Source: a phage. From it: DNA of 64,000 nt. Below the pieces are notes generated by a model. It had not been told where the DNA came from. It saw only the letters and a list, made by a program, of their open reading frames with translations, and did no database searches. The stretch is from the NCBI GenBank assembly GCA_033648345.1, contig GCA_033648345.1_4121.1; one strand, 5' to 3'. Position numbers and translations under genes: made by a program. Each line of letters begins with the position of its first letter. Position 1 is the stretch's first letter. Shown one piece after another: positions 41,413 through 60,328 of this stretch.

Positions 41413-41433
41413 GTAACTATGCACCCGGTGGGC
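41413..41433 (-). repeat. conserved core element copy I (candidate small RNA)
   Basis: Minus strand: TATAAT(41466-41461)..ATCAAGTCGAGAAAGACTCAA-GCCCACCGGGTGCATAGTTAC. Confidence 0.7.
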
Positions 41434-41580
41434 TTGAGTCTTTCTCGACTTGATGGAACTATTATACAGTACTGGAAAAATAAAGCAATACCCTGGAAGC
41501 AAAAAAGTTTTAATTAATTTGCTTGCTATCCTGGGCCGGACTATGGTACTATATTTCAGTACTGAGAAAGTGCGTTTACC

Positions 41581-41603
41581 TGCTAGGGTGCGGGAGTGTA
41601 TCC
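41581..41603 (+). repeat. conserved core element copy J+ (partial)
   Basis: TGCTAGGGTGCGGGAGTGTATCC + T7; preceded by ACT-GAGAA-AGT mini hairpin. Confidence 0.6.
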
Positions 41604-41628
41604 TTTTTTTATATCTTGAATTTTGGGC

Positions 41629-41649
41629 GTAATTCCGCACCCTCTGGGG
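41629..41649 (-). repeat. conserved core element copy J-
   Basis: Minus: TTGACT(41704-41699)-N16-TATAAT..ATAGACGCGAGAAAGCGGAAA-CCCCAGAGGGTGCGGAATTAC. Confidence 0.65.
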
Positions 41650-41859
41650 TTTCCGCTTTCTCGCGTCTATGTAGTAATTATACGCTTTTTCAGGATCAAG
41701 TCAATACCTAAAAACAAAATAATTGAAAATAATTTAACGCGTTTAAACGGCCAGTAAAGCCCTGGAATGATTGGAATGGTGCAAATGTATAGCTTAGGTG
41801 TATTAATGCGTTAGAATGCGTCTGAGGCCGTTTTATGGGGTATAGGGATGATTTGGTGG

Positions 41860-41990
41860 ATTGATTCAGTACTGAATAATAGTACTACTATATAGAAAGA
41901 TAGTTCCCCTGGATGGTTGCAGTACTGAATGATAGTACTGAATAATAGTTCCCCTATATAGAAAGAAAACTATTTTAAAAAGTATTTGTA
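41860..41990 (+). repeat. direct repeats of about 45 bp built from CAGTACTGAATAATAGT and CTATATAGAAAGA
   Basis: cagtactgaataatagtactactatatagaaagatagttcccct / tagtactgaataatagttcccctatatagaaagaaaac. Confidence 0.75.
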
Positions 41991-42081
41991 GAAAGTACTT
42001 GCAAACTAAGTTTAACGGCGTATAATGTTTTACATCGAGAGCGGGAACACTTCCCGCTACATATTACGAGAGATTAAAACG
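41985..42081 (+). promoter_or_regulatory. promoter + 5' stem-loop cassette (PeSL-like, class AGTACTTGCA)
   Basis: AGTACTTGCAA..TATAATGTTTTACATC; hairpin GCGGGAA-cac-TTCCCGC. Confidence 0.7.
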
Positions 42082-42444
42082 ATGGCGACTCAAATCACTA
42101 AAATTATTGCTAACCTGGTTAACTTCCGCGACGAGATGAAAGGTCTTCCGGCTGAAACGGTAAAAATTCACATCGCAGCTTATCGGGAACTTATTGCAAT
42201 GTTGCCGCTTAAGCGTGAACAATACGCCGCGACCGTGATGCTTGATGCGATGATCCATAAGATGATCGCCAGTGATTTGACGATGGCGTATCAGTATATG
42301 GGTGAATTGTTCGCGGTGTATAGTAAACCAGTACCAGGAATGGAAAGTACAGAAGTATTACACGGTTTAAATTTAAAACAAGATGCATGGGATAATATGC
42401 CTCGTTTCCTGGTATGGGCTGACAGTGGCAAGATTTACGAATAA
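42082..42444 (+). CDS. hypothetical protein
   Basis: ATG 42082 (MATQITK); track start 42025 begins in the TATAATG of the -10. Confidence 0.7.
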   Translation: MATQITKIIANLVNFRDEMKGLPAETVKIHIAAYRELIAMLPLKREQYAATVMLDAMIHKMIASDLTMAYQYMGELFAVYSKPVPGMESTEVLHGLNLKQDAWDNMPRFLVWADSGKIYE

Positions 42445-42536
42445 GTTTTAGAAAGTACTTGCAAACTAAGTTTAAAAGCGTATAATGTTTTACATCAGGT
42501 GGGGAATAGTTCCCCACTATATAAGAGGATTAAAAA
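42445..42536 (+). promoter_or_regulatory. promoter + 5' stem-loop cassette
   Basis: AGTACTTGCAA..TATAAT; hairpin GTGGGGAA-tag-TTCCCCAC; GAGGA RBS. Confidence 0.7.
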
Positions 42537-42776
42537 ATGGCTAAATCAAAAATGTTCTTAGGTCACAAAAACAAAACTCATTGGAATGTAAGCCTTTGGA
42601 TTAATAACGATGAGTCATTGTACCGGTTGGCCCTGGACTTTATTGCCGCCAATACTAATCGCAATGATGCGGCCCGTCATATGATGTTATTTTTAGAACA
42701 GACTGGACAAGATAAAACACCGGACGGATTCAAATATAGCACTACTGCGATCCGTGCGGCGATGGTTGGAATGTAA
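42537..42776 (+). CDS. hypothetical protein, paralogue of 44576
   Basis: GHKNKTHWNVSLWINN.ESLYRLA...TPDGFKYSTTAIRAAMVGM shared. Confidence 0.75.
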   Translation: MAKSKMFLGHKNKTHWNVSLWINNDESLYRLALDFIAANTNRNDAARHMMLFLEQTGQDKTPDGFKYSTTAIRAAMVGM

Positions 42777-42861
42777 TAGAATTTATTTAAAGTACTATCG
42801 CAAAAAATGATAGTACTTTATAATAGTGTTTTATTCATACACCAACGATAAGGGCAACAGC
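42777..42861 (+). promoter_or_regulatory. promoter (AGTACT-flanked, TTATAAT type), no 5' hairpin
   Basis: AAGTACTATCGCAAAAAATGATAGTACTTTATAAT; same type at 55790. Confidence 0.5.
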
Positions 42862-43128
42862 ATGAATATTAAGTATTTTGCGACGCGTGAACAAGCTCGG
42901 ATCGCCGCACGCCAGGACGGGGCAACGTTTAAAGATATGGGCGTACAATCGGAACGTGGTAAACGTTGGGCCATTATAAAGCGTAGTACCGCCAGATCAT
43001 TACAGTACTGGTTAGCGGCGTTAAAAAGTCCCGATAGTGTATCGCGTCGAGTGGTAGAAATAAAGCTCGACCGAAAGGGCAACCGCGTGACCGTGTACCG
43101 TACTAAAAAGATTGCAGTACTTGAATAA
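42862..43128 (+). CDS. hypothetical protein, paralogue of 55885
   Basis: KYFATREQARIAARQDGATFKDMG...RKGNRVTVYR shared. Confidence 0.7.
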   Translation: MNIKYFATREQARIAARQDGATFKDMGVQSERGKRWAIIKRSTARSLQYWLAALKSPDSVSRRVVEIKLDRKGNRVTVYRTKKIAVLE

Positions 43129-58777: not shown

Positions 58778-58965
58778 CAGTTGAAGAAGTTAAAAAAGTA
58801 CTGGCAGTACTACGCTATCATAATCATTGCAAGGTGAAGAATGATCCTGATTATCTCGATTCATCCCTGGAAGAGGATACACTACAAGCAATAAGCCATA
58901 TGCAAAAAATGCTTAAGCGTATGACCGAAAAGAATAGGCCGGACTATATCGGAAATAAAATTTAA
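58774..58965 (+). CDS. hypothetical protein
   Basis: 63-aa ORF, ATGA overlap. Confidence 0.65.
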   Translation: MTVEEVKKVLAVLRYHNHCKVKNDPDYLDSSLEEDTLQAISHMQKMLKRMTEKNRPDYIGNKI

Positions 58966-59052
58966 AAAGTACTTGCATTGTAGTTAGATTAACGTATAAT
59001 GTTTTATATCGAGAGGGGGAAATGGTTTCCCCTCAAGTCCAGGAGATACACC
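58966..59052 (+). promoter_or_regulatory. promoter + 5' stem-loop cassette
   Basis: AGTACTTGCATTG..TATAAT; hairpin GAGGGGGAAA-tgg-TTTCCCCTC. Confidence 0.7.
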
Positions 59053-59316
59053 ATGAACACTATCGAAATCACTATCAATGCACACGTATACGACAACGTA
59101 GTACTGCAAACTACTATGACCGCTAATGATACCAGTACTTTGCGGAATACTGTTATTAGTGCCGTATGTGCTGCAATCGGTGATGTATCCCTGGAAAATG
59201 CAGAACATATCAACAACGGTTTCACTATGTGCAAGCGTGATAACGCAAAACATATCATCGTGGAAGGTTACGGCGGTGTAGAATTTAATGTTTATATGAA
59301 AAAAGTACTTGCATAA
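59053..59316 (+). CDS. hypothetical protein
   Basis: ATG 59053 (MNTIEITINA) after AGGAGA. Confidence 0.7.
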   Translation: MNTIEITINAHVYDNVVLQTTMTANDTSTLRNTVISAVCAAIGDVSLENAEHINNGFTMCKRDNAKHIIVEGYGGVEFNVYMKKVLA

Positions 59317-59383
59317 TAACTAAAACAAAGTATAATGTTTTGCATAGGGGGAGATATCCTCCCCCACTAAAAGGAGTAATAAA
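59295..59383 (+). promoter_or_regulatory. promoter + 5' stem-loop cassette (-35 inside upstream gene end)
   Basis: AGTACTTGCATAA..TATAAT; hairpin GGGGGAG-atatc-CTCCCCC. Confidence 0.7.
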
Positions 59384-59608
59384 ATGGCTAACTTTGATGA
59401 ACTGATGCGGGAAGTAGCTAACCTGGCAGAAGAGAAGAAATCATTCGATTCTATCTATAACACCGCTCACCGTGATTCAGTACTGGCATGTAACCAGGAT
59501 CAAAAAGATGAACTAATCGCCACCTATCATGAAGCATGGAAGTACTACCGACAATGGGAGAAAGAAGAAAGTGAGTCTACCATTGACGGCCTCAATAATC
59601 TAATCTAA
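59384..59608 (+). CDS. hypothetical protein
   Basis: 74-aa ORF, AAGGAG RBS. Confidence 0.7.
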   Translation: MANFDELMREVANLAEEKKSFDSIYNTAHRDSVLACNQDQKDELIATYHEAWKYYRQWEKEESESTIDGLNNLI

Positions 59609-59684
59609 AAGTTTTATTTCAGTACTATTGACATAGCTTGATAGTACTGATGTAATAACTTTACTAACTACAAGGGGAAACATA
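59609..59684 (+). promoter_or_regulatory. promoter class AGTACTATTGACA..AGTACTG
   Basis: CAGTACTATTGACATAGCTTGATAGTACTGATGTAAT. Confidence 0.6.
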
Positions 59685-59942
59685 ATGGAACAGTTCACAC
59701 AATATCGGGTAAATCCACAAGCTATGGCCTACGTAGAAGACCATAAAACGTTACCAGTACTGCAACCAGTTAAAGGCCGTATCTATCGTGGCCTTGCCTG
59801 GGATACGGCCCAGGATGGATATAAAACCGTCGCCGTGGGGATGTATTGCGGGAATGGTGAATGGTTTGATCCTAGCAATCCGATTGCACTTGACAGTACT
59901 GAAAAAATGAAATGGGCCGACTACATCGAAGATATTTCATAA
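59685..59942 (+). CDS. hypothetical protein
   Basis: 85-aa ORF. Confidence 0.7.
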   Translation: MEQFTQYRVNPQAMAYVEDHKTLPVLQPVKGRIYRGLAWDTAQDGYKTVAVGMYCGNGEWFDPSNPIALDSTEKMKWADYIEDIS

Positions 59943-60032
59943 AAACTATTTGACAGTACTAACCAGTAATGTATAATGTTTTACATAGAGCGGGGGAATA
60001 GTTCTCCCGCCAATAGTTTGGAGTTAAACATT
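59943..60032 (+). promoter_or_regulatory. promoter + 5' stem-loop cassette (TTGACA class)
   Basis: TTTGACAGTACTAACCAGTAATGTATAAT; hairpin GCGGGGGAA-tag-TTCTCCCGC. Confidence 0.65.
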
Positions 60033-60233
60033 ATGTCTATCGCTATCGCCCTGGTTGAAGTACTGAAAGAAGCTAAAGCCAACCAGATCGACGTAAAGAT
60101 CCAGGAACTACAAAACGGCTTAATCGGCTGTACTTGTACCGCTGGTGGAGCGGCAGACTATCGAGAACACGAATCACTCGAATCACTGGTTCGGTATCTT
60201 ACCATGATCGTTGATGATTGGAGAATCATCTAA
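60033..60233 (+). CDS. hypothetical protein
   Basis: ATG 60033 (MSIAIALVEV); Chi at 60151. Confidence 0.65.
   Translation: MSIAIALVEVLKEAKANQIDVKIQELQNGLIGCTCTAGGAADYREHESLESLVRYLTMIVDDWRII
60151..60158 (+). other. Chi octamer (in coding sequence)
   Basis: GCTGGTGG. Confidence 0.9.
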
Positions 60234-60251
60234 CAAAAAAAGAATAAAAAA

Positions 60252-60284
60252 GGGATTGACTCCGGTCAGTCCCTTTGCTATTAT
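60252..60284 (+). promoter_or_regulatory. UCCG hairpin terminator with embedded -35 and downstream -10
   Basis: GGGATTGAC-TCCG-GTCAGTCCC; TATTAT 60279-60284. Confidence 0.7.
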
Positions 60285-60302
60285 ATACGCATAGACAAAA
60301 AC

Positions 60303-60328
60303 TAGCCCACAGGGTGCATAGGTGTATC
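60303..60328 (+). repeat. conserved core element copy D
   Basis: TAGCCCACAGGGTGCATAGGTGTATC; Chi GCTGGTGG follows at 60364. Confidence 0.75.

Follow-up and report, generated by a model that had tools for sequence, protein, structure and literature searches.

The nut sites of phage lambda, composed of boxA and boxB, direct N-dependent antitermination. The put RNAs of phage HK022 bring about antitermination independently of protein; they are ~70 nt long, have longer stems than the units described here, and number two per genome, each preceding a long operon. The RfaH-associated ops (JUMPStart) element is found once per long operon and is not known to form arrays. PeSLs are composite promoter-terminator cassettes of T4-like phages (PMC2839356, PMC4122927); Rak2-like phages group with T4-like phages in a portal-protein tree (PMC5259590). 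In PA5oct, a related jumbo phage, abundant non-coding RNAs come from the terminal repeat; they account for 2-5% of phage reads in most sampled phases, and the two repeat RNAs are 236-451 nt long (PMC7318152).

The element compared with these systems here is a predicted ~50-base RNA domain with two small hairpins, located downstream of a promoter; a giant E. coli phage carries it in many copies within its terminal repeat. It belongs to no catalogued RNA family; Rfam gave no match at the gathering threshold, nor at E up to 5, in agreement with a preliminary description that had not recognised the motif.

Host phage and terminal repeat

The window (the whole 64,000-nt stretch of DNA that was analysed) is Asteriusvirus-type jumbo coliphage DNA. 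The annotated direct terminal repeat (DTR) of vB_Ec-M-J, record positions 1-21525, was used as the reference for repeat limits; its first 40 nt correspond to ~40317 in the window and its last 40 nt to ~61734. The DTR is thus ~21 kb long in the window and encloses every copy of the element (41.4 to 60.3 kb). The copies are the same in order and orientation in vB_Ec-M-J. For fEgEco12, a related phage, a DTR of ~21 kb has been confirmed experimentally (PMC13070987). If T5 and SPO1 are a guide, DNA entry into the cell probably begins with the DTR.

Small hypothetical genes make up the DTR in mosaic fashion, and each has its copy of a repeated promoter cassette. It has at least nine intrinsic terminators on the plus strand, and its other transcripts are often predicted to carry hairpins in the 5' UTR. 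Past ~62.3 kb, genes are tightly packed and obvious promoters are absent. A co-occurring RNA-binding protein had been suggested as a search target; Pfam and PHROGs scans of 10 DTR proteins identified a DksA/TraR zinc finger, a GNAT acetyltransferase and a weak kinase-like match, and no RNA-binding domain.

Copies of the element in the window

The preliminary description proposed a dispersed conserved element in both orientations. Its IUPAC core, with up to 3 mismatches, matches the window 8 times; no match occurs in 100 dinucleotide-preserving shuffles. Relaxing the pattern to CCC-N3-GGGTGC gives 10 full copies and recovers all ten full-copy positions listed earlier; small coordinate offsets arise because a different core base was quoted. 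The first C of CCC lies at 43531, 50579, 52241, 54577, 57860 and 60306 on the plus strand, and at 41432, 41648, 43599 and 45522 on the minus strand. A covariance model recovers the identical 10 copies and has no match in window positions 1-41 kb. The partial copy reported near 41581 is also recovered, weakly (E = 0.57), and the count for the window is therefore 10 full copies plus a degenerate one rather than "at least 11". The degenerate copy is a remnant of the convergent partner of unit 2; intact convergent pairs are found at the matching place in Serratia phage BF and Klebsiella phage fENko-Kae01. The features are as follows.

about 40317 to about 61734, no strand: direct terminal repeat, inferred from homology to vB_Ec-M-J
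41399-41488, minus strand: unit 1 (44.5 bits); promoter TTGCTT-N16-TATAAT, firing toward the left physical end; predicted RNA with hairpin 1 AGUC/GACU (loop GAGAAA), hairpin 2 GCCC-ACC-GGGU and variant tail UUACGCCC
41547-41613, plus strand: degenerate copy (20.6 bits, E = 0.57); 5' half of hairpin 2 lost, GGGTGCGGGAGTGTATC kept
41615-41704, minus strand: unit 2 (41.2 bits); promoter TTGACT-N16-TATAAT, firing leftwards; hairpin 1 CGC/GCG (loop GAGAAA), hairpin 2 CCCC-AGA-GGGU or A-CCC-CAGA-GGG-U
43477-43564, plus strand: unit 3 (61.4 bits); promoter TTGACT-N17-CATAAT with extended -10; convergent with unit 4; hairpin 1 GGC/GCC (loop AGAUAA), hairpin 2 GCCC-AUA-GGGU
43566-43649, minus strand: unit 4 (46 bits), short form without hairpin 1; promoter TTGACA-N17-CATAAT; convergent with unit 3, with 68 nt between their CCC starts
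45440-45579, minus strand: unit 5 with terminator (58.9 bits); promoter TTGACA-N17-CATAAT (45579-45551); hairpin 1 GAC/GUC, hairpin 2 ACCC-ACC-GGGU, then CAGUACUG
45470-45450, minus strand: terminator of unit 5, CGGGGAG..CUCCCCG followed by a U-rich tail; discrete RNA of ~100 nt predicted
50517-50612, plus strand: unit 6 (70.9 bits); terminator hairpin with embedded -35 (50517-50544), TATTAT; hairpin 1 UGAG/CUCA (loop AGAUAG), hairpin 2 GCCC-ACC-GGGU; gene promoter at 50646 and ORF at 50725 downstream
52184-52274, plus strand: unit 7 (53.8 bits); promoter TTGACA-N17-CATAAT; hairpin 1 GACG/CGUC, hairpin 2 ACCC-AUA-GGGU, tail UGUAAC; followed by a ~230 nt leader with GATCAA repeats, then a DksA/TraR-like gene (52509-52766)
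54520-54610, plus strand: unit 8 (58.5 bits), short form; -35 embedded in terminator hairpin (54520-54547); hairpin 2 GCCC-ACC-GGGU; Chi site at 54608 and gene promoter at 54656 nearby
57798-57893, plus strand: unit 9 (75.7 bits, top match); terminator hairpin with embedded -35 (57798-57825); hairpin 1 UGAG/CUCA (loop AGAUAA), hairpin 2 ACCC-AUA-GGGU; gene promoter downstream, then ORF at 57976
60249-60339, plus strand: unit 10 (64.8 bits), short form and final unit before the right DTR boundary; -35 embedded in terminator hairpin (60249-60276); hairpin 2 GCCC-ACA-GGGU; Chi site at 60364 and promoter at 60399

Promoters and downstream context

Every copy in the window is coupled to a sigma-70-type promoter, as had been proposed. 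The two promoter types described earlier account for eight copies: 43531, 43599, 45522 and 52241 have TTGACA/T-N17-CATAAT with AGTACTGG in the spacer, while 50579, 54577, 57860 and 60306 have the -35 within a UCCG- or UUCG-loop hairpin, followed by TATTAT. The remaining two differ; 41648 has TTGACT-N16-TATAAT, and 41432 has a weak -35 (TTGCTT) with -10 TATAAT. Transcription is predicted to start at "CAT", and the core begins about 25-31 nt past the -10 hexamer, roughly +16 to +25 from that start. Among 102 distinct copies from all phages searched, 93 have a sigma-70 consensus score of at least 8/12. The -35 is inside a terminator hairpin in 4 of the 10 window units and in many units elsewhere; since these upstream terminators enclose the -35, the domain would lie at the 5' end of its own transcript.

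Unit orientation is independent of neighbouring genes, and both directions occur. Units 1 and 2, the outermost in the window, are directed at the left DNA end. The statement that no ORF follows any copy was imprecise: an ORF lies within about 100-270 nt of each plus-strand copy, in most cases with a separate gene promoter in between. Such a promoter is found downstream of 41 of 117 units; 38 belong to convergent pairs and 17 have an intrinsic terminator at a fixed offset downstream. Folds of these terminator-followed units consist of hairpin 1, hairpin 2 and the terminator. Most units (41 + 38 + 21 of 117) lack a dedicated terminator. This agrees with what was described for the window, except that 45522 (minus strand) runs into a terminator ~30 nt past the tail.

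The two-hairpin domain

The domain has a fixed order: hairpin 1, CUAR, hairpin 2 (R-CCC-ANN-GGG-U), GC, five purine-rich bases and U-N-Y-R-U-C. Hairpin 1 has a variable stem of 3-5 bp and a purine-rich loop (GAGAAA, GCGAAA or AGAUAA). Most copies had been credited with this hairpin; in the window, 7 of 10 copies carry it (43599, 54577 and 60306 do not). It is missing in 26 of 102 distinct copies, which keep an A-rich stretch in its place.

Across the 102 distinct copies, from seven host genera, all four base pairs of hairpin 1 change on both sides. There are 146 double-change cells, compared with 58 +/- 6.5 after shuffling, and none of 500 shuffles reaches 146; these pair counts are inflated by an alignment fitted to the covariance model and by the many orthologous copies from related genomes. 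The covariation score reaches 0.377 against 0.144, with slid controls at or below 0.078. At least 27 different stems occur, and the loop is constrained.

Hairpin 2 is 98% paired and nearly invariant in sequence; RNAalifold predicts it independently. Its outer pair is A-U in 52 of the distinct copies and G-U in 42, rare compensatory changes (ACCT..AGGT) occur, and loops of 3, 4 or 6 nt are found. Taken together, the pairing, the A-U/G-U alternation, the compensation and the variation in loop length favour a single-stranded hairpin over a duplex-DNA palindrome. The variable central bases of CCC-N3-GGG, read earlier as covariation, are loop variation; the proposed function at the RNA level is instead supported by the covariation of hairpin 1 and the variation pattern of hairpin 2.

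Distribution in related phages

A covariance-model scan of related phages, which the preliminary description had recommended, finds 126 copies (102 distinct) in 379 kb searched. They occur in Rak2-like phages of Escherichia, Klebsiella, Salmonella, Erwinia, Serratia, Cronobacter and Pectobacterium. In every case with known repeat limits or contig positions, they fall within the terminal repeat or early cluster. The model finds none in non-DTR window DNA, vB_Ec-M-J 330-357 kb or the PA5oct DTR. With one copy as query, blastn matches 64 phage records, exclusively Rak2-like jumbo phages of seven enterobacterial genera; matches are grouped in one ~20 kb region per genome, and several carry terminal-repeat annotation. 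The genera that carry the core are said to share only about 29% nucleotide identity (PMC13070987).

Possible roles of the element

The best explanation, with a probability of roughly 0.4 when taken whole, is that the element is an autonomous immediate-early structured RNA module. The part of this reading that concerns function as a structured RNA module is somewhat more likely than not; action in trans as a decoy or binding platform is a tentative suggestion. Each unit would be an autonomous transcription unit, repeated throughout the DTR, at which host sigma-70 RNA polymerase would initiate from the near-consensus promoter. The first ~50 nt of the transcript would fold into the fixed two-hairpin domain, and this domain, not a downstream gene, would be the functional product. 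With about 10 units in each of two repeat copies, the RNA would accumulate to high copy during the first minutes of infection. It may serve as a specific binding platform that sequesters or recruits a single, highly conserved partner protein, encoded by the host or belonging to the phage core set. Units with a terminator would yield a discrete RNA of ~100 nt; in those followed by a gene promoter, the domain would form the 5' end of a read-through transcript.

Several observations weigh against this explanation. Small RNAs that act in trans usually have their own terminator, which most units lack. Conservation is highest in a stem, not in a single-stranded seed, and the window showed no complementary target for the domain. 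The partner is putative, given the lack of an RNA-binding domain among the DTR proteins scanned. Hairpin 1 appears dispensable, judging by the quarter or so of copies (26/102) that do without it, and the pair counts supporting it are inflated.

An alternative, possible although we consider it improbable, is a cis-acting leader that modifies the host polymerase transcribing it, in the manner of lambda nut, of HK022 put or of a pause stabilised by a hairpin. While still nascent, the two-hairpin RNA would attach to its own polymerase, unaided or together with a phage factor; the polymerase would pause, resist terminators or both, and so read through from the DTR into the gene array beyond, where promoters are scarce. 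All copies lie close to their promoter (about +3 to +50), the DTR terminators and the packed genes beyond about 62.3 kb would give such read-through a role, and hairpin 1 is boxB-like in its covarying short stem and constrained purine-rich loop. The published consensus pause has G(-10), Y(-1) and G(+1), with a hairpin ending at -11; the unit consensus would fit this spacing, with invariant G at core +10, Y at +19, R at +20 and the end of hairpin 2 at +9. However, the 17 terminator-followed units run straight into the terminator and then antisense to genes, 38 units face another unit, and the outermost units aim at the DNA end, where no gene is left to be expressed. Each repeat has about 10 copies, compared with one or two nut or put sites in lambdoid phages, and each gene already has its own promoter. 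The units contain neither boxA nor the ops sequence GGCGGTAGnnTG, and the covariance model finds no similarity in the HK022 PL/PR region.

The units may instead be another class of the composite terminator-promoter cassettes with which T4-type phages shuffle genes, kept similar by recombination among copies, with hairpins that are only generic 5' stabilisers. This is rather unlikely, even though stem-loop and sigma-70 composites are repeated in plastic, ORFan-rich early regions of T4-like phages (PMC4122927; PMC2839356) and the embedded -35 elements, the mosaic DTR and its common 5' UTR hairpins are all in keeping with it. Gene conversion would homogenise whole tracts; conservation is instead position-specific, with a core nearly invariant across genera of about 29% identity (PMC13070987) beside a promoter spacer, hairpin-1 stem, loop NN and five-base linker that vary freely. 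Stem changes in hairpin 1 are compensated, and the units lack the terminal Shine-Dalgarno and start codon of PeSLs. Less likely still is a duplex-DNA operator, at which a phage or host DNA-binding protein would block or modulate polymerase leaving early promoters, for example in early transcription shut-off. The core is invariant in sequence and not merely in structure, ACCC..GGGT is an inverted repeat at a place suited to a roadblock, and the units are rich in other putative protein sites: CAGTACTG within promoter spacers and past the tail, and Fur-box-like sequences between convergent pairs in other genera. Half-site spacing, however, is 3, 4 or 6 bp and varies even within one genome, and G at the outer position in 42/102 copies breaks the DNA palindrome while retaining a G-U pair. 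Core orientation is fixed relative to the promoter, and duplex DNA needs no covariation in an adjoining hairpin 1. That covariation would also go unexplained if the core were an activator or alternative-sigma box at about -30 of a second, phage-specific tandem promoter, like the T4 MotA box, with an AT-rich TATWAT past the tail as its -10. The region +23 to +31 past the core is AT-rich, often TATAAT or TATTAT, and these phages encode sigma-like factors (PMC5259590; PMC13070987), but TAnnnT is at a fixed position in only 29/102 copies. The core never occurs without an upstream sigma-70 promoter at a fixed distance, and transcripts from such a second promoter in terminator-followed or convergent units would be just a few tens of nt; a tandem promoter is highly improbable.

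Comparison with known systems

The units share with lambda nut a promoter-proximal position in early transcripts, a short hairpin with covarying stem and constrained purine-rich loop, an adjoining sequence-conserved segment and, by prediction, carriage in the nascent RNA of host polymerase. They differ in having no boxA, in hexaloops (GAGAAA, GCGAAA, AGAUAA) instead of GNRA-like pentaloops, and in a conserved segment that is itself a hairpin; hairpin 1 may be absent. About 10 units are present in both orientations, many with a terminator or a facing copy directly downstream. No N-like protein was identified.

Like the put RNAs, the units have two adjacent stem-loops just past early promoters, and direct polymerase contact would explain sequence conservation as in HK022 put. 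Unlike put, they are smaller, far more numerous and often lead nowhere. With ops they have in common a short conserved leader and possible action through a small single-stranded hairpin and a consensus-type pause. The PA5oct RNAs are likewise non-coding transcription units in a long terminal repeat of the Rak2-related group, but share neither sequence nor structure with the units.

PeSLs also combine a repeated stem-loop with a sigma-70 early promoter in plastic, ORFan-rich early regions. They end in the ribosome-binding site and start codon that serve the following gene; in contrast, the units are predicted to transcribe a conserved two-hairpin domain, have a second promoter before the gene, and carry a core that is near-invariant across genera.

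Structure of the element

The element is a unit that consists of a sigma-70 promoter followed by an RNA domain of about 50 nt. Its parts, from 5' to 3', are as follows.

Parts of the unit
1. Upstream tract, A-rich
2. Near-consensus promoter, scoring at least 8/12 in 93 of 102 distinct copies
3. Predicted transcription start, the A of CAT
4. Hairpin 1, with variable stem
5. CUAR
6. Hairpin 2, R-CCC-ANN-GGG-U
7. GC, five purine-rich bases, then U-N-Y-R-U-C-(U-A-U)
8. AT-rich stretch, with AGTACT usually within ~40 nt

Most of the preliminary description of the window is borne out. 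Its motif, with up to three mismatches allowed, has 8 matches in the window and 0 in shuffled sequences, and a search for CCC-N3-GGGTGC returns its ten full copies. Each of these has a sigma-70-type promoter, as had been claimed; the -35 lies in a terminator-like hairpin with a 12-bp stem in four, and a small hairpin precedes the core in seven. The partial plus-strand copy is recovered by a covariance model as a degenerate copy (41547-41613, +), with no other extra copy in the 64 kb. The building of such a model had been proposed in the preliminary description. The model, R1, was used to search 379 kb, comprising the window, 16 IMG/VR loci and the terminal-repeat regions of four phages (Serratia BF, Erwinia pEa_SNUABM_12, Klebsiella fENko-Kae01 and vB_Ec-M-J), and yields 126 copies, 102 of them distinct. 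A plain MAFFT alignment (A1), in which hairpin 1 is misaligned, served solely to seed the model; pair counts come from the alignment fitted to the model, in which many rows are orthologues, and the RNA-level evidence below is to be read with these two caveats.

The suggested covariation of the hairpin-1 stem is upheld. Changes on both sides occur at all four pairs, with 146 double-change cells against 58 +/- 6.5 in shuffled alignments (0 of 500 shuffles reach this value). The covariation score is 0.377 compared with 0.144, and slid controls do not exceed 0.078. There are at least 27 different stems, while loop sequence is restricted to GAGAAA (19), GCGAAA (18), AGAUAA/G (16) and AGAACAA (7). 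The stem is missing in 26 of the 102 copies, which have an A-rich stretch instead.

Hairpin 2 is 98.3% paired and almost invariant, which leaves little for covariation to work on; RNAalifold predicts it independently. The changes between CCC and GGG that had been read as covariation are in fact loop variation. At the outer pair, 52 copies have A-U and 42 have G-U; a compensatory ACCT...AGGT is seen in two copies. The loop is mostly of 3 nt, but many copies from Eneladusvirus have one of 4 nt and a single copy one of 6 nt, with different lengths even inside one genome. These features point to a single-stranded hairpin rather than a duplex palindrome.

No helices beyond hairpins 1 and 2 are supported. 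Single folds had suggested that the 3' tail (UGUAUCUAU) pairs over a long range, either with the 5' end or with the loop of hairpin 1 or hairpin 2; this was rejected, as mutual information and direct pair tables reveal no Watson-Crick covariation. The sole strong mutual-information signal, between core positions +18 and +20 (G..A, C..G, A..G), marks subtypes rather than a helix. One fold pairs the tail with AGUACU further downstream, which is not general. Apart from the copies themselves, no target complementary to the tail or core was found in the window.

Distribution and location in the terminal repeat

True copies are found by an exact-pattern scan of IMG/VR in Rak2-like jumbo phage contigs only, confined in each genome to one cluster of ~20 kb. 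In CBB, this cluster is the annotated 22.5 kb terminal repeat (PMC5259590). When one copy is used as a blastn query against 50,697 phage records, 64 records match, exclusively jumbo phages; their hosts are Escherichia, Klebsiella, Salmonella, Erwinia, Cronobacter, Pectobacterium and Serratia, and several of the matches lie in sequence annotated as terminal repeat. A strict pattern gives two matches in 596 Gb of cellular genomes. This does not exceed our rough estimate for chance, and presence in cellular genomes was dropped. The terminal repeat of the Pseudomonas relative PA5oct encodes two abundant ncRNAs (PMC7318152); no copy of the element and no homology to these RNAs was found there. In these searches, the element is confined to the terminal repeats of one giant-phage clade.

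Five Escherichia jumbo phages of the Rak2-like group, genus Asteriusvirus (phAPEC6, SHEFM2K, Ecwhy_1, G17 and PBECO4), show ~95% identity to 41-49 kb of the window by megablast. In vB_Ec-M-J, a direct terminal repeat (DTR) is annotated at record positions 1-21525, and the same ten copies occur in identical order and orientation. Its first 40 nt map to window position ~40317, and the 40 nt that close its repeat map to ~61734; by this mapping, all window copies would fall wholly within the terminal repeat. For the related phage fEgEco12, PhageTerm analysis together with restriction digests confirmed a DTR of ~21 kb (PMC13070987).

The DTR genes are small, hypothetical and well spaced, and each has a strong sigma-70 promoter. 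Their products include a DksA/TraR-type zinc finger, a GNAT acetyltransferase and a weak kinase-like protein; the genomic context suggests that they are host take-over genes. No tRNA or tmRNA was found in the window.

Other features were observed in and around the repeat. On the plus strand, 42-61.7 kb contains ~45 near-consensus sigma-70 promoters, about one per small gene, in two repeated cassette types (AAAGTACTTGCAAAC..TATAAT and TAGTTTGACA..TATAAT), and many of the genes have a GGGGAA..TTCCCC hairpin in the 5' UTR. The ordinary gene promoters of the element-bearing region end in a ribosome-binding site and ATG. Between unit 7 (copy 52241, +) and the DksA/TraR-like gene, a long leader (52275-52370) has five (T)GATCAA repeats, each containing GATC. 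Iteron-like direct repeats lie at ~41090-41235, at a distance of ~0.8-0.9 kb from the inferred left end; their minus-strand sequences are TAGCCGTYTAGCCGTC and CCAGCCACCCAGCCACCCAGCC, with the reverse complement on the plus strand. Left of the repeat, 15869-34882 (-) holds ~15 paralogous genes of 358-449 aa each, annotated in vB_Ec-M-J as RCC1-like 'regulator of chromosome condensation'. Plus-strand genes stand between this array and the repeat, so the leftward units do not serve it as promoters.

Context and orientation of the units

What follows a unit varies. In 41 of 117 units, an ordinary gene promoter of the TTGCAA or TTGCAT type lies 25-65 nt later and is followed by a gene; 38 form face-to-face convergent pairs with fixed spacing; 17 have an intrinsic terminator at a constant offset; and 21 are followed by no recognised feature. 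Terminator-ended units would be predicted to give an RNA of ~100 nt. The earlier statement that no ORF follows any copy has to be corrected: ORFs do follow the plus-strand copies, mostly with a separate gene promoter in between. That most copies lack a terminator is right (one of ten in the window has one), with the exception of copy 45522 (-).

Units occur in either orientation in the same kind of intergenic slot. Inverted units transcribe into the upstream gene's bidirectional terminator, as unit 5 (copy 45522, -) does in the window. Serratia BF, Erwinia pEa_SNUABM_12 and Klebsiella fENko-Kae01 have a convergent pair ~1 kb from the left physical end; in its window counterpart, the plus-strand member has decayed. 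The outermost window units aim at the left DNA end.

Four 12-bp hairpins with a UCCG or UUCG loop are present at the following positions.

12-bp hairpins in the window
50517-50544
54520-54547
57798-57825
60249-60276

Each has an A-tract before it and a T-rich run after it, and encloses the -35 (TTGACT) of the next promoter. These are probably combined bidirectional terminators and promoters of the PeSL-like kind.

Other motifs in the region

The Chi sequence GCTGGTGG occurs 11 times on the plus strand, 10 of these inside the inferred terminal repeat, and its reverse complement twice. The composition-based expectation is ~0.2 per strand, so that Chi is strongly over-represented and polar. There is an inverted Chi pair ~580 nt from the inferred left end, and Chi is also found in unit promoter spacers in other genera. 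The excess suggests protection of DNA ends from RecBCD.

Chi sites in the window
9219
40893/40905
47343
47405
51899
52408
53360
54608
56965
58562
60141
60364

AGTACT (extended form CAGTACTG) occurs 275 times in the window against ~22 expected; palindromes of the same composition occur 8-40 times. Per kb, it occurs 2.6 times in coding sequence, 6.5 times in the repeat and 8.1 times in the 5 kb left of the repeat; it is densest at 35-61.7 kb. It lies in promoter spacers, 5' of the -35 in gene promoters and downstream of the tail of the element, and may be the site of a DNA-binding protein.

At 41262-41300, and also at ~41900-41960, TAGTTCCCCTACCGCGTGGGGATAGTTTCC resembles the E. coli type I-E CRISPR repeat (AGTTCCCC-N8-GGGGATA), with 17 of 29 positions identical in a hand alignment. 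The resemblance may be due to chance, since TAGTTCCCC is common in the 5' UTR hairpins of the region; the sequence could also be a solitary-repeat RNA anti-CRISPR.

In other genera, AATGATAATCATT or close variants, matching the Fur-box consensus, lie exactly between the members of convergent unit pairs. The sequence is absent from the window.

Fur-box-like sequences in other genera
L001, 8084-8124
L019
L024, ~6095-6110
L005
L029, ~1030-1050
L031, ~1036-1056 and ~7312-7325

Interpretation

The unit behaves as an autonomous module whose output is the 5' RNA domain, whatever lies downstream; on this ground, a functional RNA product is favoured with modest confidence. Hairpin 2 is invariant across genera that are said to share only ~29% nucleotide identity (PMC13070987), which suggests, again with modest confidence, a binding platform for one conserved partner. 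The most far-reaching interpretation is a tentative one, with a probability of roughly 0.3: the two-hairpin domain would be a new phage RNA signal, made in bulk from the terminal repeat in the first minutes of infection, that captures or reprograms a conserved host machine. In one version, the target would be the transcribing RNA polymerase, and the domain would be put-like but unrelated to put, or the loading site for a new phage factor. In the other, the domain would be an RNA decoy, and what it captures would be an RNA-binding or nuclease component that serves host defence or RNA turnover.

The chief competitor of the binding-platform reading is a nut/put-like or pause element that acts in cis. 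The promoter-proximal position, the abundance of terminators in the repeat and the boxB-like hairpin 1 are consistent with this. The spacing would also fit the published pause consensus, G(-10) Y(-1) G(+1), with the hairpin end at -11. However, some units have nothing ahead of them but a terminator, a facing unit or the DNA end; copy number and the absence of boxA, ops and HK022 put similarity also speak against a cis element. A PeSL-like cassette accounts for the terminator-promoter composite (PMC4122927) but leaves both the position-specific invariance and the missing ribosome-binding site and start codon unexplained. Two further explanations are disfavoured: variable spacing and G-U alternation argue against a duplex-DNA operator, and the core was rejected as a phage-specific middle promoter in tandem with the sigma-70 promoter, since no more than 29 of 102 copies have a -10-like hexamer.

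Significance

Rak2-like jumbo phages are therapy candidates, and 70-90% of their genes are without known function. The element is the most conserved non-coding sequence in the Rak2-like terminal repeat and is coupled to the strongest host-type promoters; its pattern of variation appears to reflect selection on RNA structure. It offers a concrete and easily tested handle on early infection. Should polymerase or an RNA-binding protein of the host prove to be its partner, the element would be a new RNA-based device for take-over or antitermination, and either version of the novel signal would add an RNA component to host take-over across the whole clade of giant enterobacterial phages. Even as a stabilising leader or shuffling cassette, it would mark where transcripts start and how the repeat is laid out in modules. 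The covariance model can now be used to annotate the element in new genomes.

Comparison with known systems

In a lambda-type nut site, boxA (CGCUCUUUA / UGCUCUUUAACAA) adjoins the hairpin; neither form is present in a unit or close to one, and the loose pattern GCTCTT[TA]A is matched only at 8296, 3689 and 63121. The lambda boxB-type loop is a purine-rich, GNRA-like loop of 5 nt, whereas hairpin-1 loops, also purine-rich, have 6-8 nt, with hexaloops commonest among those listed. A boxB-type stem would be expected to covary; the stem of hairpin 1 does so where present, and 26 of 102 copies are without a stem. A nut site also calls for an arginine-rich phage protein of the N type that binds the hairpin. 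Ten DTR proteins have no RNA-binding domain match in Pfam or PHROGs, and no RNA-binding partner is recognisable among them. In HK022 put, the nascent RNA makes polymerase resistant to terminators by itself. With filters off, the best R1 match in HK022 record positions 24000-32000, which we take to include PL/putL and PR/putR, has 10.1 bits (E = 3.8). The full RfaH ops pattern GGCGGTAGnnTG is absent from the window, and a single GGCGGTAG, at 37524 (-), is not part of a unit. Nothing similar to boxA, ops or HK022 put was found.

The stem-loop upstream of or overlapping a sigma-70 early promoter that characterises PeSLs is seen in four of ten window units, where the -35 lies inside a 12-bp hairpin and a T-rich run comes after the hairpin; the other six are without it, and many units in other genera have it. 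A PeSL ends in the Shine-Dalgarno sequence and start codon of the gene it precedes; the units do not. A classical trans-acting small RNA gene has its own promoter and terminator and gives a discrete RNA of 50-250 nt; essentially all units have the promoter but only 17 of 117 their own terminator. The element had not been recognised as any known RNA family in the preliminary description, in agreement with Rfam 15, which has no match in the window at the gathering threshold; with E up to 5, 41-61 kb gives three chance-level matches, none on a unit. Nothing like it is described in the papers searched on CBB, RaK2, PA5oct, fEgEco12, PeSLs, Asteriusvirus and jumbo-phage transcriptomes. The element is not assigned to nut, put, ops or PeSL because testable defining features of each are lacking. 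It is probably a new promoter-coupled structured RNA motif which resembles known leader and small-RNA devices.
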